Part shown: piece after piece, positions 1 through 13,287 of the stretch | How the letters are laid out: each line of letters opens with the position of its first letter | How positions within the stretch are numbered: position 1 is the first letter of the stretch | IMG/VR virus record: IMGVR_UViG_2802429225_000001 | DNA length: 13,287 nucleotides | Strand: one strand, 5' to 3' | Source of the DNA: a virus | Taxonomy: Duplodnaviria > Heunggongvirae > Uroviricota > Caudoviricetes | The notes under the pieces: model-generated | What the model saw: the letters and a program-made list of their open reading frames with translations, nothing else | Told to the model about the DNA's origin: nothing | Database searches by the model: none | Position numbers and translations under genes: made by a program

Positions 1-489
1 TTCGTCCCGTATACCGCCATGCAGGACGATAGCGCCCCGACAGGCCAGCGCATCTGGGAAGAGTTACAGAGCGGCAAATGGGGAGAAATAACCCCGTTCA
101 CCGTCACGCCGGAACTTATCACCGCGGCGAAGGATGCCAAAAAGCGGGAAATCGAGGTGTGGCGCACAGAACAGGAGGCGCAGCCGTTCACGTTCGAATG
201 GAACGGTCGTAGCTGGAATGCTGGCCCCAGCTCACTGGCCCGTATCTATCCGGTGGTAATGGCATCAAAATCCGACACAGCGCGGGACGTTATGACATGG
301 GGTGATGCCGATAATCAGCAAGTGAAGATGTCGATGCCAGAGCTTGAGGAGCTGGCTACAGCTATGGCGCAGGCGCAGGTTAACCGCAATGATGAAATTT
401 ATCGACGTCAGCGACAGATGAAGGACGTGCTGGATGGCCTGAATAATCTTGCCGACATCCGCGCTTTTCAGACTGGAGAGTCAGAATGA
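1..489 (+). CDS. Phage tail-fibre-assembly-like protein, DUF4376-type C-terminal domain; reading frame is open to window position 1, so the 5' end probably lies outside the window (first in-window Met at 19)
   Basis: ORF 19..489 with no in-frame stop between 1 and 18 and no Shine-Dalgarno before Met19. Pattern WR..EA..FTFEWNG..W...W.DADN..V.M...RQRQMK matches my recollection of the DUF4376 signature. Stop overlaps next start (ATGA at 486-489). Confidence 0.5.
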   Translation, partial: FVPYTAMQDDSAPTGQRIWEELQSGKWGEITPFTVTPELITAAKDAKKREIEVWRTEQEAQPFTFEWNGRSWNAGPSSLARIYPVVMASKSDTARDVMTWGDADNQQVKMSMPELEELATAMAQAQVNRNDEIYRRQRQMKDVLDGLNNLADIRAFQTGESE

Positions 490-1199
490 AATGGGAAAAG
501 GCAATTCTGCGTCCGTCAGCCATGCACATTAAATGCTCTGTGGTTTGCCTTCATCCATGGTCAGAAAATACCGGAAACATCAAACCATCGGGGCGTTATC
601 TCAGCCCCGAAAATGCTGTATCTGCACTTTTACCCTATCTGAAAGAAAGCACAGAAAAAGACATTGTGGCGCTGTTATTTTGCACCCCTTCTGCTGGCGA
701 GTTTTTATCACTCGCCAGGCAATTTTCAGGCGCATTTCCGTTGCCGGAGGTGGGACGAATGTCCCGCATGATCTCCAGCCAGCTTTCACTGGCCATCAGC
801 AGAATGCAAATCCCCGCCAGACCGGCAACATCACTTCCGGAACCGATAATGCTGTCGACACAGACCACTCGAAGCATGTCGCTGGCGGCAACCATTGCAC
901 AGGCAGCCACTCCTGCCGCCACATCACCGGAAACATTGTCATCATCGCTGCATCAGTTCATGAATGCGAGAGATAAAGCCTTACAGGAAATCGCTGATCA
1001 GCAGGCCGCACTCCGGCAAAAATTTTGCCCGGTGTGGCGCTTTTGCTACAAGGGAGCTCTTAGCCAGGCTGCAGTGCTGATACAAAAAAACATCCCACAC
1101 CCCGAGTGGGTTTTTACAGCTGTGATGCTGTTCGTCGGCGATAATCTCTCATCACTAAGGGAAGCACTACATGACCCAGATGATTGTCCTTGCGCTTGA
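486..1199 (+). CDS. Hypothetical prophage protein (237 aa), function unknown
   Basis: Longest ORF in region; ATGA start/stop overlap with upstream gene and 29-nt overlap with downstream gene suggest a coupled operon. Rare-codon content is fairly high and the protein is S/T/A/P-rich, so the frame call is moderate. Confidence 0.45.
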   Translation: MKWEKAILRPSAMHIKCSVVCLHPWSENTGNIKPSGRYLSPENAVSALLPYLKESTEKDIVALLFCTPSAGEFLSLARQFSGAFPLPEVGRMSRMISSQLSLAISRMQIPARPATSLPEPIMLSTQTTRSMSLAATIAQAATPAATSPETLSSSLHQFMNARDKALQEIADQQAALRQKFCPVWRFCYKGALSQAAVLIQKNIPHPEWVFTAVMLFVGDNLSSLREALHDPDDCPCA

Positions 1200-1746
1200 C
1201 GGGGAAGCCATTCTGCTGCGCAACATCACCGTCAGCGCCACCATGCAACTACCGGACAAAGATATGTCCGGACAGTCAACCAGCACCACGAGCGCCCAGC
1301 AGGGAAACAAGGCTAAAGAGCTGCGCGTGTCGGGGGTTATTGATTTTAACGATGAAGCTATTCTGACCCGTATTTTTCAGCTTGCGGAGGCAACAGAAAG
1401 CAACGGTGCTAAAAAAACATATCGCATTGCTAACGCTACCGCGAAGGCAATCAATATGCGACAGGGGGTATTTTCTGGTGGCATTGATGCCACGGAACAA
1501 CAGGGAAAAATGCACTGGCAGGTCACCTTTACTCTCAGGGAAAAATTAAGCGTGCCAGAGAAAGCATCAGCACGTAGCGGTTCACAAAAAACCATCGCCA
1601 GACAGCAGACCCAGAATGGCAGCGAACAGGCACCAGACAAAGGCATGAATACGCAAAGTTCGTTCTGGAAAAAAATCAATGATGCCGTTGGCTCTGGTCT
1701 GGATGCTGTTGGCATTGGGAGCGTGAAAGAGGAAGGGAAAACATGA
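1171..1746 (+). CDS. Hypothetical prophage protein (191 aa); possibly a tail-associated protein
   Basis: ORF with AAGGGA Shine-Dalgarno-like sequence about 7 nt before ATG 1171; stop overlaps next start (ATGA at 1743-1746). No motif I can assign confidently. Confidence 0.5.
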   Translation: MTQMIVLALDGEAILLRNITVSATMQLPDKDMSGQSTSTTSAQQGNKAKELRVSGVIDFNDEAILTRIFQLAEATESNGAKKTYRIANATAKAINMRQGVFSGGIDATEQQGKMHWQVTFTLREKLSVPEKASARSGSQKTIARQQTQNGSEQAPDKGMNTQSSFWKKINDAVGSGLDAVGIGSVKEEGKT

Positions 1747-3440
1747 AATTGATACAACGCTGCATGATTAATGGCGAACAGGTGGAAATTGCCGATATAA
1801 ACCTTGTTCTTACCCTGAATGCTGCCGGTCGTGGCTTCATTTCTGTTAACAATCTGTCACCCGAACACAGCCTTGCCGGCGCAATGGTACAAATTGATCT
1901 CGGCCGTGACGGTGAAGCATGGCGCTATTTCTCCGGCTACATTGAGCGCGATCAACCTGCTGAAAATGGCTCACGTCGCCTTTTTATCCGTGAAGCAGCT
2001 GCTGTGCTGGATTTTGATTTCCCTTGCTCCATGCAACACCCGACGTTGCGGGGGGTACTCGATAATCTGGGCAAACAAAGCGGCATCGTTTTCATCACGC
2101 CAGATGCGGATTACGTCAGCATACCAACTCCCTACATCACCCACAGCGGCAGCGGAGCACAACTGCTCAGCCAACTGGGGCGAGCATTCAGTATCAGCGA
2201 TTACGTCTGGCATCCAATGCCGGACGGTTCTGTATTTGTGGGAAGCGCAGCTGATTCACGATTTGCCAGTATTACAATGCCGGATATTCCGCAACAGTAC
2301 ACACTCGGGCAAAGCGGCGGAAACAGCATCGACATCATGTTTATGGAAACTGTGCGACCGGGCGTGAACCTACCGGCCGGGCGCATTACCCGTGTAGCCC
2401 TCAACAACGAGAAAATGACCCTGACATGGGAGCGCCTTACCGCCACGGGTAGCCCTGTTTCCAAATCACCATTACGCAGACAAATGGAAACACAGTTCCC
2501 GGAACTGGCCAGCGGTACTCTTCATACCCGGCTGGCGCGCGTCATTGCCCCAACGGAATCCGTCACCCTGGGCGATGTAGCCGACAGCTTCCGCCCACGC
2601 TACGCCGTTGATGTGCAGTTGCTTGATGAGAACGGCAACGATAAAAACGATACACCTGTTTACCCGGCAGTACCCCTCCCCGTCCCCATGGCTGGCAGTG
2701 AGGCGGGATGTTTTGCCTACCCGCCGGCTGGCACCATCGTGGAAATATCCAACATTGAAGGACGACCGGATAAACCTGTCATCAGGCAAATCTTACCCGC
2801 GGGCCATAACCTGCCTGATGTAAAGCCCGGCGAACAGCTGCAGCAACAGCGCGCAGAAGTGTTTCAGCGCGTCACGACTGACGGAAGCTGGCACAGAGAA
2901 ACCGATCAGCAAATCAGGGAGCATTCAGCCAGGCGAACCATTAACAGCGATCAGGAAGAACGCACAACAACAACCAGAACAACAACAGTACAGGCAAACG
3001 ACATAACCAGCGTTCTGGGAACCAGCAAGCTGATGACAGGCCAGACAGAACACATTACTACTGGCCATTATGCGATCGCAGCCGGTGAGCATATCCAGAT
3101 GGTAGCGCAGGATTTGCTGACTAAACTCAAAGGGGCGACATCCACCATCGAACATAACCTCACCGAAAATGTGGGAGGCCGCAGAACATGCCGGGCGGAC
3201 GGCGGCCTGGAATTTACCGCCCCGACTGTATTTATCGGTCGCGGTGGCTCACGGGAAAAATCCGGACTTAATCTGCTGACGTTGTTGATTGATATTCTGG
3301 ATCTGGTTCAGTTGCTGGCCACACACACTGCAAACCATACCCATAGCAATACTGGCGCACCAACAAACAGCAGCGAACTTGCCACAGACGCCCAACAGGC
3401 TACGAGCCTGCGCGAAAAATACGGTGACCTTATCGCCTGA
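1743..3440 (+). CDS. Prophage structural-type protein (565 aa); possible baseplate hub (gpD/gp27/VgrG-like N-terminal region) with Thr-rich linker and His-cluster C-terminal region
   Basis: Long ORF, translationally coupled to upstream gene. N-terminal segment (AWRYFSGYIER ... LRGVLDNLGKQSGIV) resembles the conserved hub motif of gpD/VgrG proteins as I recall it; C-terminal part has ERTTTTRTTTV and HTANHTHSNTG (HxH-type cluster as in spike tips). Functional call is by-eye only. Confidence 0.6.
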   Translation: MKLIQRCMINGEQVEIADINLVLTLNAAGRGFISVNNLSPEHSLAGAMVQIDLGRDGEAWRYFSGYIERDQPAENGSRRLFIREAAAVLDFDFPCSMQHPTLRGVLDNLGKQSGIVFITPDADYVSIPTPYITHSGSGAQLLSQLGRAFSISDYVWHPMPDGSVFVGSAADSRFASITMPDIPQQYTLGQSGGNSIDIMFMETVRPGVNLPAGRITRVALNNEKMTLTWERLTATGSPVSKSPLRRQMETQFPELASGTLHTRLARVIAPTESVTLGDVADSFRPRYAVDVQLLDENGNDKNDTPVYPAVPLPVPMAGSEAGCFAYPPAGTIVEISNIEGRPDKPVIRQILPAGHNLPDVKPGEQLQQQRAEVFQRVTTDGSWHRETDQQIREHSARRTINSDQEERTTTTRTTTVQANDITSVLGTSKLMTGQTEHITTGHYAIAAGEHIQMVAQDLLTKLKGATSTIEHNLTENVGGRRTCRADGGLEFTAPTVFIGRGGSREKSGLNLLTLLIDILDLVQLLATHTANHTHSNTGAPTNSSELATDAQQATSLREKYGDLIA

Positions 3441-3479
3441 TCACCGGGCATAAAGCCCCCCATAAACGCCCCATCACGC

Positions 3480-3508
3480 AACGCACGGCTCCGGTCGTGC
3501 GTTTTCAT
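3480..3508 (+). terminator. Candidate intrinsic terminator after the 565-aa gene
   Basis: Stem ACGCACG (3481-3487) / CGTGCGT (3496-3502), 8-nt loop, followed by TTTTC; lies 40 nt after the stop at 3440. Confidence 0.4.
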
Positions 3509-3983
3509 ATCTGCCACCTGATTAATGCGTTCTGCGTGCCATTCCGGCGCTGTATGCGCACACCACGTAAACGGTGTGACGTAAAGCGTGAGGTGACGTA
3601 AACCGCGCTACCCCCTCCAACCCGCGGGTTTTGTGTCGAAACACTTTTTCAGTTTTCTGCCGTGCAAAAATGACCGCCAGCCCGCGCAGCAACTGAGGGA
3701 AAAGCGAAGATCTGAAATTTCACGTTTTGAAATTTTTTGCAGTTTTCAGAGAGGTTTTTACGATCGCACAAATGGCAGGGGCAATAAAACTGCATGATAT
3801 TAAAAGAGTTTTCATGCTTTACGTGGGACAAGACACGATCGCGAAAGGATCGCGTTAAACAACTCTCAAACAAAGAAGCCAGACGCAGCGCGGCCTGCGT
3901 AAAATCAAGAGCCAGAATTAAACTGAAAAAAGGATCAATACCACGCCTCGATCGCGCATGACGATCTATGCAGCAACATGACG

Positions 3984-4050
3984 AAAAAAAACCGGCGCGA
4001 ACGCCGGCGGAAGCATGTATCAAATGCGTGACTGAATAATGTCTGCGGTC
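3984..4050 (-). ncRNA. Candidate small RNA (about 67 nt) with its own promoter and intrinsic terminator, divergent from the hok-like promoter
   Basis: On the minus strand: -35 TTGAGG (4079-4084), 16-nt spacer, extended -10 TGaTATAAA (4057-4065), then about 67 nt ending in hairpin CCGGCG-UUCG-CGCCGG (3992-4007) followed by eight U (A-run 3984-3991 on plus strand). No convincing ORF or Shine-Dalgarno inside. Confidence 0.35.
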
Positions 4051-4088
4051 GGGAATTTTATATCAGAAGACTGACAGGCCTCAACGGA

Positions 4089-4118
4089 TTGAAACAAGGG
4101 AAAAAACCAGGCTAGAAT
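4089..4118 (+). promoter_or_regulatory. Candidate sigma70 promoter of the hok-like mRNA
   Basis: TTGAAA (4089-4094), 18-nt spacer, TAGAAT (4113-4118); predicted start near 4125, exactly where the 5' element complementary to the 3' end begins. Confidence 0.45.
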
Positions 4119-4168
4119 TCGCGCGGGTGCCTTTCGGCTGATGGCTGGAGGGAATACCTGAAGGCCGG

Positions 4169-4351
4169 ATGTGGAAAGGCCCCGGAAAACATTTTTGTTT
4201 AACCGAGGCCCTAACCGTCTACCTAGCAAGTGATAGGTTAGCGCCTCCCCGAAAAAGGAGCAAGCGCTATGTCGCAAAAATCGCTTACAGCCATCACGTT
4301 CTGTGTGACGGCAATCCTCATCATCTGGATGCTGCACGGCTCGCTGTGTGA
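4169..4351 (+). CDS. mok-like overlapping reading frame (60 aa) upstream of and overlapping the hok-like toxin gene
   Basis: ORF starts at ATG 4169 (GAAGG 4160-4164 upstream), is in a different frame from the toxin ORF and ends inside it, as mok does in hok/sok loci. Protein shows no recognisable domain, so the role is by position only. Confidence 0.3.
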   Translation: MWKGPGKHFCLTEALTVYLASDRLAPPRKRSKRYVAKIAYSHHVLCDGNPHHLDAARLAV

Positions 4352-4409
4352 AATACGGATGAGCTTCTGGGGAGCGGAGTTTGCGGCGTTCTTACAGTGT
4401 AAGCAGTAA
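4269..4409 (+). CDS. hok: Hok/Gef-family type I toxin (46 aa small membrane peptide)
   Basis: ATG 4269 preceded by AAGGAG (4255-4260, 8-nt spacer). Translation MSQKSLTAITFCVTAILIIWMLHGSLCEIRMSFWGAEFAAFLQCKQ has a hydrophobic N-terminal helix plus the SLCEIR ... E.AAF motif shared with Hok (R1) and HokA. Below the size cut-off of the supplied ORF track. Confidence 0.7.
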   Translation: MSQKSLTAITFCVTAILIIWMLHGSLCEIRMSFWGAEFAAFLQCKQ

Positions 4410-4495
4410 GGAAACCGCGACGGGGGAGTAATCCCCCGTCAATCGGTTGCTAAGGTTGGTCGAAACGGCACCCTATCTCACAGACATGAACAACA

Positions 4496-4530
4496 AACCC
4501 GCAGCGTAAAAACTGCGGGTTTTCTTTTTG
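4496..4530 (+). terminator. Intrinsic terminator of the hok-like transcript
   Basis: Stem AACCCGCAG (4496-4504) / CTGCGGGTT (4513-4521), loop CGTAAAAA, followed by TTTCTTTTTGTTG. Confidence 0.6.
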
Positions 4531-4579
4531 TTGCCCTCACAAATGAGGGTGACACTATTCGTAAGCAATAGGCATGACA

Positions 4580-4627
4580 GATCGATGCAATAAATCCGAT
4601 CGATAAAAACGATCGGTTTGTTATCAT
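4580..4627 (+). promoter_or_regulatory. Regulatory region of the com-methyltransferase operon: three clustered GATC sites plus candidate extended -10 promoter
   Basis: GATC at 4580-4583, 4598-4601 and 4611-4614 (two within ATCGAT); TGtTATCAT extended -10 at 4619-4627 with no good -35 (the -35 position coincides with a GATC). Resembles the layout upstream of Mu mom. Confidence 0.4.
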
Positions 4628-4661
4628 ATCGGCAGCAGTAACCACACAAGAGGTGCCGCAA

Positions 4662-4859
4662 ATGACGCAAAATGTACGATGCAAAAATTGCAACAAACTA
4701 CTTGCCCGCGCCTCATTTCACTACATTGAAATAAAATGTCCGCGCTGCAAAACACTTAACCAGATAACGAGAGCCATTGAGCACCCCACACGCATGAGGA
4801 GTTATGACCGTGGGGATCGCAACCCAGCATCAACCAGTACATACACCGGAACACACTAA
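4662..4859 (+). CDS. com: Com-like zinc-finger translational regulator (65 aa from ATG 4662; the ORF track starts 3 codons earlier at GTG 4653)
   Basis: AAGAGGTG Shine-Dalgarno (4648-4655) 6 nt before ATG 4662. Protein MTQNVRCKNCNKLLARASFHYIEIKCPRCK ... EHPT carries the CxxC ... CxxC motif and surrounding residues of phage Mu Com. Confidence 0.8.
   Translation: MTQNVRCKNCNKLLARASFHYIEIKCPRCKTLNQITRAIEHPTRMRSYDRGDRNPASTSTYTGTH
4784..4815 (+). promoter_or_regulatory. Stem-loop sequestering the methyltransferase ribosome-binding site and start codon (candidate Com-responsive translational operator)
   Basis: CCCCAC (4784-4789) pairs with GTGGGG (4810-4815); the 20-nt loop holds GAGGAG (4796-4801) and ATG 4804. 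Lies inside the 3' end of com. Confidence 0.4.
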
Positions 4860-5610
4860 GATTTACCAGATTGACAATGCCACGCTCTGTCGTGGAAATG
4901 CACTGGAAATATTGCCGCTGATTGAGCCAGAAAGCATTGATGCCTTAATCACTGACCCGCCTTACAGTTCGGGTGCGACACACAAGGCCGGACGCACCAA
5001 CCAGGGCAGTCATGCAAAATATCTGAACGGCGAGAACCTTCACCGCTTTGATGGGTTCGCGGGTGAGAACATGGACGCCCGTTCGTGGGCTTACTGGACA
5101 CAATTATGGATGGCACAGGCACTACGTGCAGTCAGGTCGGGCGGTTATGCCCTGGTATTTACTGACTGGCGACAACTGCCTGCTTTAACCGATGCGTTTC
5201 AGGCCAGCGGTTTTACATGGCGTGGAATCATTGCGTGGAACAAAGGAAAGGGGTCACGAACACCCCATACGGGGTATTTCCGGCATCAGTGCGAATACAT
5301 CGTCTGGGGCAGCAAAGGCCATTTAGGTAAATCGCCTTCGGGTCCGTTCGACGGCTGCATGACGTTCCCGGTTATCCCGTCAAAGAAAATGCACCCGACC
5401 GGAAAACCAGAAGAACTAATGGCAGAGCTGGTCAGAACTGCGAATAGTGGCGGAACAGTCCTTGATCCTTTTATGGGGTCAGGGACAACGGGTGTGGCTG
5501 CACTGAAAGCAGGGCGAAAATTTATTGGTATAGAAACCAGTGATCATTATTTTGAGGTAGCGGCGCAGCGGCTTCGGGGGACTATTACCACAACCATTTC
5601 GACTACATAA
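4804..5610 (+). CDS. DNA amino-methyltransferase, beta class (N6-adenine or N4-cytosine; N6_N4_Mtase type), 268 aa
   Basis: Motif IV DPPY (LITDPPYSS) precedes HPTGKP and motif I DPFMGSGTT, the beta-class order (IV before I). Start overlaps the com 3' end out of frame (ATG 4804; alternative GTG 4810). Confidence 0.85.
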   Translation: MTVGIATQHQPVHTPEHTKIYQIDNATLCRGNALEILPLIEPESIDALITDPPYSSGATHKAGRTNQGSHAKYLNGENLHRFDGFAGENMDARSWAYWTQLWMAQALRAVRSGGYALVFTDWRQLPALTDAFQASGFTWRGIIAWNKGKGSRTPHTGYFRHQCEYIVWGSKGHLGKSPSGPFDGCMTFPVIPSKKMHPTGKPEELMAELVRTANSGGTVLDPFMGSGTTGVAALKAGRKFIGIETSDHYFEVAAQRLRGTITTTISTT

Positions 5611-5640
5611 GACAAAGCCCGCATTTTTTGCGGGCTTGTC
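5611..5640 (+). terminator. Hairpin immediately after the methyltransferase stop (candidate terminator; T-run is in the loop, not 3' of the stem)
   Basis: GACAAAGCCCGCA (5611-5623) / TGCGGGCTTGTC (5629-5640) with TTTTT loop; starts 1 nt after the TAA at 5608-5610. Confidence 0.35.
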
Positions 5641-5711
5641 TATCCTTACTGATGTGGACAGTTTGTGGATGCTTATAAGAAATAAGCTAATAGAAACAAT
5701 CTGTTAGATTT

Positions 5712-5737
5712 ACAAAAAACGCGCCCGAAGGCGCGTT
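5712..5737 (-). terminator. raiA intrinsic terminator
   Basis: On the minus strand: AACGCGCC-UUCG-GGCGCGUU followed by UUUUUU (plus-strand A-run 5714-5719); 24 nt downstream of the raiA stop. Confidence 0.6.
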
Positions 5738-5760
5738 GGCGATACACTCAATATAAAGGA

Positions 5761-6156
<396 letters not shown>

Positions 6157-6336
6157 TCAAAATGTGTGATGGAAATCTCATAATTTTGTCACTTTTTGTC
6201 AACGAAGTTTTTTTGTGAGAAATCGCAGGAAGAAGTGTTTTTTTACTTGAGGAATGTCTCAAAGCGAGCCATATTTGATGAGATCGATCGCGACTAAATC
6301 GCTTCAGTTACACGCGTTACAGAATAAAAAAACGGC

Positions 6337-6349
6337 AGCTCAAGGGCTG
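6337..6349. repeat. Target-site duplication copy (left) of the IS4 insertion: AGCTCAAGGGCTG
   Basis: Identical 13-mer recurs at 7777-7789 on the other side of the IS; with the preceding base it is 13/14 identical to 7776-7789. Confidence 0.6.
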
Positions 6350-7775
6350 TAATGCCAGTCAGTTAAGCAACTGACTGGCTCTTTTTCGGGGCTGTGGGGG
6401 ATTTCCAGGGTCTCTCCTTTACCACTCTCGGGAAGGCCCTTTCCCTTCTTGTCGGTAATTTCACTAGTTGTCCCATACTTGCAAGATCGCGCATCAGCTC
6501 CGGTATACGTCCCGGTGAAGCGCCCTGCAATGTCATCAGCATTCTCATCACCATTCCGCATGATTCTGAGAAACTCAGTTGATTCGGCCAGTAACCTTTC
6601 AGATGTTCTGCCATTTTAATCATCTGATATCTCACCAGATTATAAGCCAGTAAGACACCCCATAGCTCTTGCTCCACAAGCTCCGGCTTTTTACTTCTCA
6701 GCGTCAGCCTGCTCAGTTGCATCGTCTGTTTTATCTCCCTGTATCCCAGTTCGATTTCCCAGCGATGACTGTACAGATCCGCCATTTCTCCTCCGGGGAA
6801 GCGCATGGCGTCCGTCATCGACGTCAGCAGATGGCAGACTTTTCCTTTGCGCGTCACGGTCAGCAGGCGGGCTGTCACCTCATTTCCCAGTCCCGGCCAC
6901 TTTTTTCGTGCCTGCGGGCTGGTTTTCAGCTTCACCAGATGATCGCCTTTACCCAGTTTTCTGATCTCTTCATATTGCGCTCCCTTTCTGAGAGGGATCA
7001 TCCAGTGGCGGTGTTCTCCCGCCTGGCTCCAGGCATTTAACAGTCCCAGTGAGTAATAACCTTTATCCATTAACGTCAGGGTGTTATCGCCGGTTTGTTC
7101 TATAAGTTGCTCAGCAAGCTCATTTTCGCTGTTCTTCATCGTGCCGAAAGCTGCAGCCGTCAGCAGATGGCTGGTCAGTTCCATCTGGCAGACCATTTTG
7201 ACCTGCGGGTAGAGCGCCGGGTTCCCGGCATGTGTCTGGCGGGGGAAGGCTGCATCGTTCTCTGGTGTATCCGGTGTGCGCCAGAACACACCATCGATGG
7301 CCAGCAGGGTCAGGCCGCACCAGTGCGGATGCGGCGTGGCGTTATGCCAGAGCTGCGCTGTTTTCGTGAACACGCGGCGGACAGCCTCACTTCCCAGGCG
7401 CTGGCGGGCCTGAATAACGGCACTGGGGGCAACGAAGGGGCGATTGCCCGGTAGCATGATGTCCAGGCGATTCACAATCTGGTGAAGAGGTTCTTTACGC
7501 TCAAGCGCCATGCCAACAATACACCAGACCATCATTTCGAGGGGAAGACGGCGCTTGCGTAGCGTTACAGTACCTGATTCGGCAAGGCAACGAGAGATGA
7601 GTTCGGGGTCGAGGTAATCCCCCAGAGAAGTCAGTGGGTTACGCAGAGAATCGTAACGGGATACCAAATCAAGTGCCTGTCCAATGAGCATAAAAAAATC
7701 CGGAAACGAGTGAGCGTTTCCGGATTCTTACACAGCCACTGGATCGGTCAACTGATCCTTAACTGATCGGCATTA
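6350..7775 (-). mobile_element. IS4 insertion sequence, complete copy (1426 bp) with 18-bp imperfect terminal inverted repeats
   Basis: Ends TAATGCCAGTCAGTTAAG (6350-6367) and, reverse-complemented, TAATGCCGATCAGTTAAG (7758-7775), 16/18 match. Length 1426 bp and a single 442-aa transposase ORF match IS4 as I know it; flanked by the 13-bp direct repeat. Confidence 0.9.
6363..7691 (-). CDS. insG: IS4 transposase (DDE family, InsG-type), 442 aa
   Basis: Full-length ORF inside the IS. Start ATG at 7689-7691 is immediately preceded on the minus strand by an 11-bp stem (7698-7708 / 7715-7725) and a U-run, a typical IS read-through barrier. Confidence 0.9.
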
Positions 7776-7776
7776 G

Positions 7777-7789
7777 AGCTCAAGGGCTG
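7777..7789. repeat. Target-site duplication copy (right) of the IS4 insertion: AGCTCAAGGGCTG
   Basis: Same 13-mer as 6337-6349; one extra G (7776) lies between the IS end and this copy. Confidence 0.6.
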
Positions 7790-7812
7790 CCGTTTTGTGT
7801 TTCAGAATTCTG

Positions 7813-8550
7813 TTATGTATTGCTGCTGTTTGCGGCGATGATTTTCGCGACTTTTTCAGCTTGTGCATTCATCTGCATCTGACGGTAAGCATTTTCCATT
7901 AGTGGCAGAGCATCACGTGTAGCCTGAGTATCCGGGAAATCGCGCAGCATGCCTTCTACACGGTTAACGACAGCAACCCATGCGCCGCGTTCTGTATAGT
8001 ACTCGGCAACAGAGTATTCATATTTCGCCAGGCGATCTTTCAGGAACACCAGACGTTTGGTGGCATCGGTGGTGTACTGACTGTTCGGATAGCCGCGAAC
8101 TAATTTGGAAAAGTCACTAAACGCAGCTCGAGCATGTTGAGGATCGCGATCGCTACGGTCAACGCCAAAGAATCCTTGTAGCGCACTGTCATCCAGTGCC
8201 ATATTGGTCAGGCCACGCATATACATGACATAATCGATATTCGGATGGGTCGGGTTCAGGCGAATAAAACGATCGATGGCAGCCTGTGCTAACGGCAGAT
8301 CGGCGTTTTTATAATAGGCGTAGATGAGATCCAACTGCACCTGCTGTGAATACGGACCAAACGGATAGCGATTATCTAACGCTTCCAGTTGCGTTATTGC
8401 CTGTCTCCAGTTACCGTCCTGCAGCTTTTGTTGTGCAGTCGCGTAAATTTCATTTGGCGGATTATCAGGTACTTTTTCCTTTGAACCCGAGCAACCCGCC
8501 AAAAACAGGCTTAATGTGGCGGCTGCCACCAGATATTTCATGCGCGTCAT
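7813..8550 (-). CDS. bamD: Outer-membrane protein assembly factor BamD (YfiO) lipoprotein, 245 aa
   Basis: [26 protein letters not shown] ... with lipobox LAGC; recognised as E. coli BamD. Confidence 0.95.
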
Positions 8551-8684
8551 GACGTTTTGACTTTCCTCAAAATGTATTACGGGAGATTCTCTGTTCCTGC
8601 TCCCGGTTAAGACCAGCTACAATAGCACACTATATTAAACGGCAAAGCCGTAAAACCCCAACGATAAACGAAGAAGCAGTATAT

Positions 8685-9665
8685 ATGGCACAACGAGTAC
8701 AACTCACTGCAACAGTGTCCGAAAACCAACTCGGTCAACGCTTAGATCAAGCTTTGGCCGAAATGTTCCCGGATTATTCACGTTCGCGGATAAAAGAATG
8801 GATCCTCGACCAGCGCGTGCTGGTTAACGGCAAAGTTTGTGATAAGCCGAAAGAAAAAGTATTGGGTGGCGAGCAGGTTGCCATAAACGCCGAAATTGAA
8901 GAAGAAGCGCGTTTTGAACCGCAGGATATCCCACTGGATATCGTCTATGAAGATGAAGACATCATTGTTATTAATAAACCGCGCGACCTGGTTGTACATC
9001 CTGGCGCGGGTAACCCTGATGGCACGGTGTTGAATGCGTTGCTTCATTACTATCCGCCAATTGCAGATGTTCCGCGTGCGGGCATTGTCCATCGTCTGGA
9101 TAAAGACACGACGGGTTTGATGGTTGTGGCAAAAACGGTTCCAGCTCAGACGCGTTTGGTGGAGTCTCTGCAACGGCGTGAAATTACCCGTGAGTACGAA
9201 GCCGTAGCGATTGGTCATATGACTGCGGGTGGCACGGTGGACGAGCCAATCAGCCGCCATCCCACCAAACGCACCCATATGGCGGTGCATCCGATGGGCA
9301 AACCAGCGGTCACTCACTATCGCATCATGGAACACTTCCGTGTGCACACGCGTCTGCGGTTGCGTCTCGAAACAGGACGTACGCATCAGATCCGCGTGCA
9401 TATGGCGCATATCACTCATCCGCTGGTGGGTGATCCGGTTTATGGTGGTCGCCCGCGTCCGCCGAAGGGGGCGTCAGAAGCGTTTATCTCCACGCTGCGT
9501 AAGTTTGATCGTCAGGCGCTTCACGCAACGATGCTACGTCTCTATCACCCGATTTCCGGTATCGAAATGGAATGGCACGCGCCTATCCCACAAGATATGG
9601 TTGAACTGATTGAGGTGATGCGCGCCGATTTCGAAGAGCATAAGGATGAAGTGGACTGGTTATGA
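8685..9665 (+). CDS. rluD: 23S rRNA pseudouridine synthase RluD, 326 aa
   Basis: ORF MAQRVQLTATVSENQLGQRLDQALAEMFPDYSRSRIKEWILDQRV ... recognised as E. coli RluD; divergent from bamD; stop overlaps the yfiH start. Confidence 0.95.
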   Translation: MAQRVQLTATVSENQLGQRLDQALAEMFPDYSRSRIKEWILDQRVLVNGKVCDKPKEKVLGGEQVAINAEIEEEARFEPQDIPLDIVYEDEDIIVINKPRDLVVHPGAGNPDGTVLNALLHYYPPIADVPRAGIVHRLDKDTTGLMVVAKTVPAQTRLVESLQRREITREYEAVAIGHMTAGGTVDEPISRHPTKRTHMAVHPMGKPAVTHYRIMEHFRVHTRLRLRLETGRTHQIRVHMAHITHPLVGDPVYGGRPRPPKGASEAFISTLRKFDRQALHATMLRLYHPISGIEMEWHAPIPQDMVELIEVMRADFEEHKDEVDWL

Positions 9666-10393
9666 GTAAGTTGATTGTCCCGCAGTGGCCGTTGCCAAAA
9701 GGTGTTGCGGCCTGTAGCTCTACCCGTATTGGCGGCGTTAGCTTACCGCCTTACGATTCTCTCAATCTGGGGGCCCATTGTGGTGATAACCCGGAACACG
9801 TTGAGGAGAATCGCAGGCGACTTTTTGCTGCGGGCAATTTGCCTTCAAAACCGGTCTGGCTTGAGCAGGTACATGGGAAAGATGTTCTAAGGCTTACTGG
9901 CGAACCTTATGCCTCTAAACGGGCGGATGCATCTTATAGCAACACACCTGGCACGGTTTGCGCTGTGATGACTGCCGACTGCCTGCCTGTGCTGTTTTGC
10001 AACCGTGCGGGAACGGAAGTCGCCGCTGCTCATGCTGGCTGGCGTGGACTTTGCGCTGGTGTGCTGGAGGAGACAGTTTCTTGTTTTGCTGATAAGCCAG
10101 AAAACATTCTTGCCTGGTTGGGACCCGCAATTGGTCCGCGCGCCTTTGAAGTGGGGCCGGAGGTTCGCGAGGCATTTATGGCAGTAGATGCCAAAGCGAG
10201 CGAGGCTTTCATTCAGCGTGGTGATAAATATCTGGCGGATATTTATCTGCTTGCCCGGCAGCGCCTGGCGAACGTCGGTGTTGAACAAATTTTCGGTGGT
10301 AATCGCTGTACATACACTGAAAATGAGACTTTCTTCTCTTATCGTCGCGACAAGTGCACGGGTCGTATGGCAAGTTTCATTTGGCTGATATAA
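9662..10393 (+). CDS. yfiH: YfiH/PgeF (DUF152 purine nucleoside phosphorylase / peptidoglycan editing factor), 243 aa
   Basis: ORF MSKLIVPQWPLPKGVAACSSTRIGGVS ... ; ATGA overlap with rluD at 9662-9665; position between rluD and clpB as in E. coli. Confidence 0.93.
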   Translation: MSKLIVPQWPLPKGVAACSSTRIGGVSLPPYDSLNLGAHCGDNPEHVEENRRRLFAAGNLPSKPVWLEQVHGKDVLRLTGEPYASKRADASYSNTPGTVCAVMTADCLPVLFCNRAGTEVAAAHAGWRGLCAGVLEETVSCFADKPENILAWLGPAIGPRAFEVGPEVREAFMAVDAKASEAFIQRGDKYLADIYLLARQRLANVGVEQIFGGNRCTYTENETFFSYRRDKCTGRMASFIWLI

Positions 10394-10455
10394 CCTAAAG
10401 AATCAAGACGATCCGGTACGCGTGATTTTCTTTTCACATTAATCTGGTCAATAAC

Positions 10456-10483
10456 CTTGAATAATTGAGGGATGACCTCATTT
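10456..10483 (+). promoter_or_regulatory. Candidate sigma32 (heat-shock) promoter of clpB
   Basis: CTTGAAT (10456-10462), 13-nt spacer, CCTCATTT (10476-10483), matching the sigma32 consensus CTTGAAA / CCCCATnT; about 40 nt upstream of the clpB start. Confidence 0.55.
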
Positions 10484-10522
10484 AATCTCCAGTAGCAACT
10501 TTGATCCGTTATGGGAGGAGTT

Positions 10523-13096
10523 ATGCGTCTGGATCGTCTTACTAACAAATTCCAGCTTGCTCTTGCCGATGCCCAATCACTTGCACTCGGGCACGACAAC
10601 CAATTCATCGAACCACTTCATTTAATGAGCGCCCTGCTGAATCAGGAAGGGGGTTCGGTTAGTCCTTTATTAACATCCGCTGGCATTAATGCTGGCCAAT
10701 TGCGCACAGATATCAATCAGGCATTAAATCGTTTACCGCAGGTTGAAGGTACAGGGGGCGATGTCCAGCCTTCACAGGATCTGGTGCGCGTTCTTAATCT
10801 TTGCGACAAGCTGGCGCAAAAACGTGGTGATAACTTTATCTCGTCAGAACTGTTTGTTCTGGCGGCACTTGAGTCTCGCGGCACGCTGGCCGACATCCTG
10901 AAAGCAGCAGGGGCGACCACCGCCAACATTACTCAAGCGATTGAACAAATGCGTGGAGGTGAAAGCGTGAATGATCAAGGAGCCGAAGACCAACGTCAGG
11001 CTTTGAAAAAATATACCATTGACCTTACCGAACGTGCCGAACAAGGTAAACTCGATCCGGTAATTGGTCGTGATGAAGAAATTCGTCGTACCATTCAGGT
11101 ACTGCAACGCCGTACTAAAAATAACCCGGTACTGATCGGTGAACCTGGTGTCGGTAAAACCGCCATCGTTGAAGGTTTGGCGCAGCGTATTATCAATGGC
11201 GAAGTACCTGAAGGGCTGAAAGGCCGCCGCGTACTGGCGCTGGATATGGGCGCGCTGGTGGCTGGGGCGAAATATCGTGGTGAGTTTGAAGAACGTCTGA
11301 AAGGCGTGCTGAACGATCTGTCGAAACAGGAAGGCAACGTCATTCTGTTTATCGATGAGCTGCACACCATGGTGGGCGCAGGTAAAGCCGATGGCGCAAT
11401 GGACGCCGGGAATATGCTGAAACCGGCACTGGCCCGTGGTGAACTGCACTGCGTGGGCGCGACCACCCTTGATGAATATCGCCAGTACATTGAAAAAGAT
11501 GCGGCGCTGGAACGTCGTTTCCAGAAAGTGTTTGTTGCCGAGCCAACGGTGGAAGACACCATTGCTATTCTGCGTGGCCTGAAAGAACGTTACGAGCTGC
11601 ACCACCATGTGCAAATTACTGACCCGGCAATTGTTGCAGCGGCGACGTTGTCTCATCGCTACATTGCTGACCGTCAGTTGCCAGATAAAGCCATCGACCT
11701 GATCGATGAAGCGGCATCCAGTATCCGTATGCAGATTGACTCAAAACCGGAAGAGCTTGACCGACTCGATCGTCGAATTATCCAGCTTAAGCTGGAACAA
11801 CAGGCGTTAATGAAAGAGTCTGATGAAGCCAGTAAAAAACGTCTGGATATGCTCAATGAAGAACTGAGTGACAAAGAACGCCAGTACTCTGAGTTAGAAG
11901 AGGAGTGGAAAGCAGAGAAAGCGTCACTCTCTGGCACCCAGACCATTAAAGCCGAACTGGAACAGGCGAAAATCGCCATTGAACAGGCGCGCCGTGTAGG
12001 TGATCTGGCGCGGATGTCCGAACTGCAATACGGCAAAATTCCGGAGCTCGAAAAACAACTGGAAGCGGCTACGCAGCTCGAAGGCAAAACCATGCGTCTG
12101 TTGCGTAATAAAGTGACTGACGCAGAAATTGCTGAAGTGTTGGCGCGTTGGACGGGCATTCCTGTTTCTCGCATGATGGAAAGTGAGCGCGAAAAACTGC
12201 TGCGTATGGAGCAAGAACTGCACCATCGTGTTATTGGCCAAAACGAAGCCGTTGATGCGGTATCTAACGCCATTCGTCGTAGCCGTGCGGGGCTTGCGGA
12301 TCCTAATCGCCCGATTGGTTCGTTCTTGTTCCTCGGTCCAACGGGTGTAGGTAAAACCGAACTCTGTAAGGCGCTGGCGAATTTTATGTTCGACAGTGAC
12401 GAGGCGATGGTTCGTATCGATATGTCCGAGTTTATGGAGAAACACTCGGTGTCTCGTCTGGTTGGTGCACCTCCGGGATATGTGGGTTATGAAGAAGGTG
12501 GCTACCTGACTGAAGCGGTGCGTCGTCGTCCTTATTCCGTCATTCTGCTGGATGAAGTGGAAAAAGCGCATCCGGATGTATTCAACATTCTGTTGCAGGT
12601 TCTGGATGACGGACGTCTGACTGATGGGCAGGGGAGAACGGTCGATTTCCGTAATACGGTGGTCATTATGACCTCTAACCTCGGCTCCGATCTGATCCAG
12701 GAACGTTTCGGTGAACTGGATTATGCGCGCATGAAAGAGCTGGTGCTCGGCGTGGTTAGCCATAACTTCCGTCCGGAATTCATAAACCGTATTGATGAAG
12801 TTGTGGTCTTCCACCCGTTGGGTGAACAACATATCGCTTCGATTGCCCAGATCCAGTTGAAACGTCTGTACAAACGTCTGGAAGAACGTGGTTATGAAAT
12901 CCACATTTCTGACGAGGCACTGAAACTGCTGAGCGAGAATGGTTACGATCCGGTTTATGGTGCACGTCCTCTGAAACGTGCTATCCAGCAACAGATCGAA
13001 AACCCGCTGGCGCAGCAAATACTGTCTGGTGAATTGGTTCCTGGCAAAGTCATTCGCCTGGAAGTTAATGAAGACCGCATTGTCGCCGTCCAGTAA
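10523..13096 (+). CDS. clpB: Chaperone/disaggregase ClpB (Hsp100 AAA+ ATPase), 857 aa
   Basis: Two AAA+ modules (Walker A GEPGVGKT and GPTGVGKT) and the middle coiled-coil. I place the start at ATG 10523, which gives the 857-aa length I know for ClpB, with GGGAGGAG 10513-10520 as Shine-Dalgarno, rather than the track's ATG 10511. Internal GTG (Val149) at 10967-10969 matches the known ClpB-80 alternative start. Confidence 0.97.
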
Positions 13097-13102
13097 ATGA
13101 TA

Positions 13103-13130
13103 AAACGAGTCCTTCGGGGCTCGTTTCTGT
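13103..13130 (+). terminator. clpB intrinsic terminator
   Basis: AAACGAGUCC (13103-13112), UUCG loop, GGGCUCGUUU (13117-13126), then CUGUCUAU; starts 7 nt after the clpB stop. Confidence 0.5.
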
Positions 13131-13189
13131 CTATAAGTTAGACGGAAAAGACCATGCTCGGGGTGTTTTGCCTGAAAATTGAGCGAACG

Positions 13190-13248
13190 ATAAAGTTTTT
13201 ATATTTTTCGCTTGTCAGGCCGGAATAACTCCCTATAATGCGCCACCA
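13190..13248 (+). promoter_or_regulatory. rRNA operon P1 promoter with A/T-rich UP element (rrnG-type, downstream of clpB)
   Basis: TTGTCA (13212-13217), 16-bp spacer GGCCGGAATAACTCCC, TATAAT (13234-13239), GC-rich discriminator GCGCCACC and start A near 13248; this is the rrn P1 core as I know it from rrnB P1. A/T-rich tract 13190-13208 upstream. Confidence 0.8.
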
Positions 13249-13287
13249 CTGACACGGAACAACGGCAAATAAGCCGCCGGGTCAGCG

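Follow-up and report, generated by a model that had tools for sequence, protein, structure and literature searches.

In the genome record of phage P2 (NC_001895, 24265–24496), the attachment region is arranged in the order terminator, Int P arm, IHF site, 27-bp attP core, Cox sites and P′ arm, the latter overlapping the 3′ end of int. Arm-type sites of P2-type integrases follow the consensus tgTGGaCa, and a tyrosine, an aspartate and an arginine residue in the N-terminal part of the protein have been linked to P2-type arm recognition (PMC3448106). Among deposited phages, the integrase closest to the one described below is that of Klebsiella phage 3LV2017 (Reginaelenavirus) with 64% identity, a value that no deposited phage integrase exceeds. 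The annotated att core of 3LV2017, AAACCCGGAGCACTCCGGGTT, consists of a G+C-rich hairpin followed by a T run, as at the locus studied here, and its P′ arm contains GTGGATG-type repeats 11 bp apart, whereas core sequence, host genus and phage backbone are different. Escherichia phage P88 and other Xuanwuvirus members (Peduoviridae) have the same virion gene layout as the phage studied here and form the closest group of deposited phages in DNA similarity, and phage Chuche shares the com–methyltransferase module. However, none of the P88 and Xuanwuvirus records contains the P arm or the core found here, their int/att modules differ, and Int of an Escherichia record named after P88 (Entero_P88_NC_026014(23), PV468777.1) is only 56.6% identical to the lysogen integrase. 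In the com–mom system of phage Mu, the end of the phage genome carries a small Com zinc-ribbon gene that runs into the start of the modification gene. The same layout occurs here, but the downstream gene encodes an N6/N4 methyltransferase instead of Mom and the phage is not transposable.

We analysed a stretch of 13,287 bp, hereafter called the window, which is the whole of draft contig PTSR01000050.1 (assembly GCA_002965345.1) and breaks off in the tail-fibre region of a prophage. Positions 1–5610 are occupied by phage genes, all on the plus strand, while from 5761 rightwards raiA (minus), an IS4-family element, bamD (minus), rluD, yfiH and clpB follow in reversed K-12 order. We are highly confident that the segment 5611–5738 between them is the attR (P-O-B′) of a P2-family prophage (Peduoviridae, Xuanwuvirus/P88-like), which was inserted into the raiA terminator by tyrosine-integrase site-specific recombination. 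The features of this region are as follows.

Within 1–5610, plus strand: tail-fibre-associated protein DUF4376
Within 1–5610, plus strand: baseplate-type proteins (PF25759, phrog_2258)
4269–4409, plus strand: Hok/Gef-type ORF, 46 aa
4653–4859, plus strand: com-type zinc-ribbon regulator gene (PF10122 Zn_ribbon_Com, E = 1.2e-11; phrog_13819, 'gpCom control of modification')
4804–5610, plus strand: N6/N4 DNA methyltransferase, last phage gene before att (PF01555, E = 4.4e-32; phrog_67)
5611–5640, plus strand: terminator-type hairpin closing the com–methyltransferase operon, stem-loop 5615–5637 (folding, terminator scan)
5641–5711: phage P arm of attR (P-O-B′ junction), contiguous with core and P′ side in viral contig L018
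5653–5660, plus strand: Int arm-type site 1, TGTGGACA, exact match to tgTGGaCa, starting 59 bp before the core
5664–5671, plus strand: Int arm-type site 2, TGTGGATG, direct repeat 11 bp after site 1, starting 48 bp before the core
5694–5706, plus strand: candidate IHF-like site, AAACAATCTGTTA, matching WATCAANNNNTTR with one mismatch, starting 18 bp before the core
5712–5738: 27-bp att core, ACAAAAAACGCGCCCGAAGGCGCGTTG, same sequence as attB of K-12 and of six near-isogenic genomes
5712–5737, minus strand: raiA intrinsic terminator, perfect 8-bp inverted repeat AACGCGCC/GGCGCGTT, 4-nt loop, U tract
5724–5731: CCCGAAGG, inferred crossover (overlap) segment, hairpin loop plus two closing base pairs on each side
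5761–6102, minus strand: raiA (PF02482; RefSeq annotation in aligned genomes), whose terminator is attB

A sequence-only reading of this DNA had let the phage-type genes end at 5610, and this is where the methyltransferase ORF stops. Its homologue is annotated as DNA-methyltransferase in RefSeq lysogens, and together with com, whose 3′ end overlaps the methyltransferase start by 56 nt, it forms the last operon of the prophage. The hairpin proposed in the same reading was confirmed by folding: the stem-loop 5615–5637 has an RNA ΔG of −21.9 kcal/mol (z = −8.3), and none of 200 shuffles folded equally well. In P2, the same position ahead of the P arm is taken by the ogr/F-operon terminator; here, hok, com and the methyltransferase gene lie before the P arm, rather than ogr alone. 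The region around the Hok/Gef-type ORF (4113–4529) shares 93–94% identity with P88-group phages and approximately 82% identity with many Stx-converting phages, where it is annotated as 'MokW-like host killing'.

The module consisting of hok, com, the methyltransferase gene, P arm and attR was found in identical form on two Peduoviridae backbones (L028 and L029 versus L027, L030 and the window). One of them is classic P2-like (gpU, T, E, FII, FI, D, a ParA-like gene and ogr) and the other contains the Xuanwuvirus-like tail-fibre/baseplate cluster of the window. This indicates that att-proximal cargo is exchanged as a module between backbones.

The homology break is located at 5711|5712, with phage DNA up to 5711 and the Escherichia chromosome from 5712, in agreement with the earlier estimate of about 5705–5712. 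All 5,426 complete E. coli genomes aligned with the window from 5712 rightwards, whereas only 125 of them also contained 5400–5711. In 5,273 of the 5,426 genomes pheL and raiA are contiguous, i.e. the site is empty. The remaining 153 genomes without an intact empty site comprise the 125 with this P arm, strain 1604D011 with a second prophage (see below) and approximately 27 others. Hence up to 3% of complete E. coli genomes have an occupied or disrupted raiA–pheL site, and this att module is present in approximately 2.3%. An int gene adjoins pheL in 123 genomes, which agrees with the 125 that carry the raiA-side junction. No species representative in GTDB carried this junction in a scan with the attR pattern.

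As a control set we used six genomes that share the exact YfiH protein and the IS4 insertion of the window. They are 99.6–99.99% identical to 5712–13287 (CP056165.1 shows one mismatch in 7,576 bp), and in all six the site is empty, with pheA–pheL abutting raiA and homology to the window starting at exactly 5712. The stretch 5641–5711 was absent from these six genomes as well as from the 5,273 empty-site E. coli genomes, and where it occurred it was always accompanied by the phage methyltransferase operon. In K-12, the pheL promoter and leader lie directly left of the identical 27 bp, as the sequence-only reading had correctly stated. The bases TGTCA directly precede ACAAAAAACGCGCCCGAAGGCGCGTTG there and complete a TTGACA hexamer on the pheL strand; the promoter fragment of a published pheA reporter begins at precisely this hexamer (PMC3082878). 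A promoter consensus scan called no promoter in 5400–6400 of the window. The same scan misses the K-12 pheA promoter, because its −10 region is too weak for the rule applied; this promoter was placed by the TTGACA hexamer abutting the core and by the published reporter.

The chromosomal part of the window (5712–13287) shows approximately 93–96% identity to all 5,426 E. coli genomes, compared with 99.6–99.99% identity to genomes of 4.46–4.75 Mb such as CP056165.1. The host probably belongs to an Escherichia lineage other than E. coli. Between raiA and bamD an IS4-family element is inserted at 6350–7776 (transposase 6363–7691, minus strand; PF13006 and PF01609), flanked by a 13-bp target duplication (6337–6349 = 7777–7789). 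This copy is missing from K-12 and from the E. coli lysogens; since it is shared with the six empty-site genomes, it appears to be a lineage marker that is older than, or independent of, the lysogeny. Directly 5′ of clpB, Rfam family RF02768 (Ysr155/RyfD sRNA) was detected in full length at 10404–10542 on the plus strand (125 bits). In viral contig L020 (IMGVR_UViG_2558860434_000006), this P arm and core border on a raiA 3′ end that is clearly more diverged, and to judge from this contig the phage may use this attB in another Escherichia or related species.

Because the window is an entire draft contig, the pheL-side junction of its own prophage lies out of view, and for this part our description rests on related genomes. 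Four complete lysogens were examined (FHI_NMBU_10, ETEC4077, MB07081 and ECL27977), each of which carries a prophage of approximately 36 kb between pheL and raiA. In these prophages an integrase gene adjoins pheL. The other encoded proteins include a C-like repressor (100 aa, HTH) and a Cox-like protein, Ogr and a GpA-type replication endonuclease, as well as portal, terminase, scaffold and capsid proteins of the P2 family. Behind the tail genes, hok, com and the methyltransferase gene adjoin raiA. No Mu transposase (MuA/MuB) was found in the four prophages. The suggestion that the element might be Mu-like in its com module only was therefore well founded. It had also been supposed that the pheL–pheA promoter now lies beyond the other end of the element, and its attenuator there had been named as a point to check: in all four lysogens the annotation shows pheL, the Rfam-type Phe leader and pheA intact, approximately 36 kb to the left. 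In the genome from which the window derives, the int end is presumably still present.

The lysogen integrase matches PF00589 and PF24624 and shares 53.8% identity with P2 Int along the entire protein. The catalytic residues R194, H268, R271, H294 and Y303 (Arg, His-x-x-Arg, His, Tyr) are invariant between both proteins, and Y11, D14 and R16, the N-terminal residues mentioned above, are common to both. As in P2, genes for a Cox-like protein and a C-like repressor lie beside int. The Cox protein itself is weakly similar to that of P2: the ORF beside the repressor matches PF10743 with 25.3 bits, below the cut-off of 27.5, and phrog_272 with E = 2e-4, while its homologue in L006 bears the RefSeq name 'Cox family'. 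Excision would probably depend on this Cox-like protein.

A search of IMG/VR with a short arm pattern yielded seven contigs, one of which, a metagenomic viral contig (IMGVR_UViG_3300000059_000093, L018), contains a contiguous attP consisting of P arm, a T-variant core and 69 bp of the P′ side. It is 96% identical to the window over 4493–5738 and then continues into the int-side arm without chromosomal DNA. Core and P′ arm of L018 are 100% identical to the phage side of attL over 96 bp. The contig ends 69 bp past the core and represents a single short assembly path rather than a closed phage genome; as far as it reaches, its sequence is that predicted for unintegrated phage DNA. Among deposited phage records, the query 5560–5790 retrieved none with this att arm, the sole match being Salmonella raiA. 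The literature search returned no paper on prophage integration at the raiA/pheL site, and Xuanwuvirus was mentioned only incidentally. The att specificity is new among deposited phage isolates, while the module itself is standard P2-type and ordinary biology.

The A/T-rich stretch of about 70 bp noted earlier extends over 71 bp (5641–5711) and contains 31% G+C, compared with 51% for the whole window. By its sequence, it is a structured P arm of a P2-type attP and not filler. Counting both strands, the whole window contains the motif TGTGGA only six times. In P2 as well as here, an operon terminator is followed by two arm repeats 11 bp apart, an IHF site (here a candidate), a 27-bp core and P′ repeats, and the distances agree closely: in P2 the first and second arm repeats also start at −59 and −48 relative to the core start, and a match to WATCAANNNNTTR with one mismatch also starts at −18, inside the annotated IHF region. 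On the int side, TGTGGATG occurs twice with 11 bp spacing (L003, positions 14036 and 14047), and the P′ repeats lie at +90 and +101 from the core end in the lysogens and at +89 and +100 in P2. Core and target are different, the phage studied here using the raiA terminator and not P2 locI.

Six distinct P-arm haplotypes were collected from 17 loci. Arm site 1 is invariant in all of them, and the eight variable phage-arm positions (5640, 5645, 5672, 5676, 5701, 5702, 5707 and 5708) fall outside the arm repeats and the specified positions of the IHF-like site, in which only the N positions 5701 and 5702 vary. Matches of this quality to the IHF motif occur at a frequency of 0.08 per 100 bp of the window. 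The strict IHF consensus had no exact match in 5600–5760, and the candidate is a one-mismatch match, to which IHF might bind.

In the sequence-only reading 5712–5737 was assigned to the raiA terminator. This assignment holds: on the minus strand, the predicted structure comprises a stem at 5737–5718, a UUCG loop and six U residues (ΔG −14.4 kcal/mol) and lies 23 bp downstream of the raiA stop codon. No Rfam family was detected in 5611–5737. A matching repeat at the other end of the element, which had been proposed as a check, does exist. In the four lysogens the 27-bp core is repeated at the int-proximal prophage end, approximately 36 kb away, with one C-to-T change at the equivalent of 5732; the window itself contains the attR copy only. 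The pheL-side junction reads ...cacgctgtca ACAAAAAACGCGCCCGAAGGtGCGTTG taaaaccc... in all four lysogens (attL, CACGCTGTCAACAAAAAACGCGCCCGAAGGTGCGTTGTAAAACCCAC), and the raiA-side junction reads ...ttt ACAAAAAACGCGCCCGAAGGcGCGTTG gcgatac..., the attR copy ending in ...GGcGCGTTG. Thus, a junction had been rightly recognized, but it had been placed beside the raiA terminator, while it is located inside the terminator, which coincides with the core. The one base that differs comes from the phage at attL (T) and from the host at attR (C), which puts strand exchange to its left, within 5712–5731, and most likely within 5724–5731.

The latter position is suggested by an unrelated prophage of approximately 48 kb at the same attB in E. 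coli 1604D011 (NZ_CP149553.1, 1210460–1259230; L032/L033/L034). It is lambdoid-looking (Q antiterminator, HK97-type head, lambda-type tail) but has a P2-type int–C–cox module, and its integrase is only 57% identical to the lysogen integrase. This prophage carries acquired copies of IS66 and IS200. Its attL reads ...aaaacgcg CCCGAAGG tgctttaagg... and its attR ...ttttaaagca CCCGAAGG cgcgttg.... Arm repeats of the sequence ATGGAC are 11 bp apart and 69 bp from the octamer, and the arm-to-crossover spacing is the same as in the window. At the 1604D011 junctions only CCCGAAGG is common with attB, and in a comparison of seven att forms this is also the only stretch common to attB, to attP, attL and attR of the phage studied here, and to attL and attR of the second phage. 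As the second phage shares only this octamer with attB, strand exchange is placed in the hairpin loop. 5724–5731 is therefore likely to be the overlap region of both phages, for the phage in the window by deduction from the sequences compared, and the exact cleavage positions are presumably found here.

The two phages appear to differ in their effect on the raiA terminator. The phage in the window restores it exactly, whereas the attR of the second phage replaces the U tract (…GGUGCUUUAAAAAA) and supplies another hairpin with a T run approximately 70 bp downstream on the raiA strand. It is possible, although we put this forward only tentatively and just short of calling it probable, that the loop CCCGAAGG of the raiA terminator serves as a shared crossover for two or more diverged P2-type integrases (57% identity) from unrelated backbones, a Peduoviridae myovirus and a lambdoid-looking phage, and maybe for a wider terminator-targeting clade. 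All five integrase relatives that were found (59–70% identity; from Symbiopectobacterium, Raoultella, Klebsiella, Sodalis and Chania) have repeats of the TGGAT type at the 3′ end of int and, approximately 85–95 bp downstream of the end of the integrase match, a G+C-rich hairpin with a T run. As a rule, this integrase group seems to target terminator hairpins.

The presence of a Mu-type com regulator gene before the last phage gene might point to the end of a Mu-like transposable phage that had been inserted beside raiA by DDE transposition. There is next to no probability left for this explanation: the insertion point is fixed across 125 genomes, the ends share a 27-bp core repeat and not a 5-bp target duplication, the last phage bases are GATTT without a terminal CA, and in complete relatives a tyrosine integrase is encoded together with GpA-type replication and P2-type heads, but no MuA/MuB. 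Just as improbable is the idea that 5641–5711 is ordinary variable core intergenic DNA and no boundary of a mobile element at all, and nothing was found in its favour. The sequence-only reading had stated that its proposal would fall if this stretch belonged to island-free strains, and the alignment showed the contrary, as the stretch is missing from both sets of empty-site genomes, always occurs with the phage methyltransferase operon and is joined to the int side of the phage in viral contig L018.

A genuine attR might also be left behind by a defective or truncated prophage, for example one without int or attL, that has lost the ability to excise. The contig stops in the tail-fibre region, so that the rest of the element lies outside the window. 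Decay is visible in some related lysogens (pseudogenised tail-fibre and ash genes, an inserted shikimate-transporter fragment), and insertion sequences are active in the host lineage, an IS4 copy lying 600 bp away. Nevertheless, we regard such a fossil as unlikely. Five assemblies carry an identical attR haplotype, arm and core sites are both intact, and most of the 125 attR genomes also have attL with a full-length int (123 genomes). Moreover, contig breaks in tail-fibre repeats are a common assembly artefact.

Integration of a P2-family prophage at the raiA terminator most likely proceeds as follows. The attP of the phage holds its own near-copy of the raiA terminator (27 bp, one mismatch). 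To one side of it lies the P arm, in which two Int arm-type repeats are followed by an IHF-like bend site, and to the other a P′ arm that overlaps the int 3′ end. Int would bridge arm and core sites and exchange strands within CCCGAAGG. After integration, raiA would be followed by a complete terminator at attR, as in the window, and would keep a perfect terminator because the phage brings its own copy. The pheL–pheA promoter would retain its −35 hexamer and 27 bp of native upstream sequence at attL, approximately 36 kb to the left. There it may be shielded from int transcription, on the int strand, by a strong phage hairpin (ΔG −20.4, z = −5.2) and then by the core copy, which is slightly weakened (ΔG −9.6, with an alternative fold interrupting the core stem). 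At attR, the convergent terminators 5615–5637 and 5737–5718 would leave the P arm untranscribed. With both the raiA terminator and the pheL–pheA promoter retained, integration would be neutral for both flanking transcription units. For lysogens of the second phage, on the other hand, the altered U tract could change raiA 3′-end formation, if the loop is indeed shared as a crossover.

For annotation, these data fix the exact boundary of the prophage and assign functions to a 127-bp non-coding stretch, namely an operon terminator, a P arm and a core that doubles as the raiA terminator. They also extend the list of Escherichia integration sites by a defined attB, located between the raiA terminator and the pheL promoter. 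Finally, the locus provides a clean example of a phage with a replacement terminator, whose integration would disturb neither of the neighbouring transcription units.
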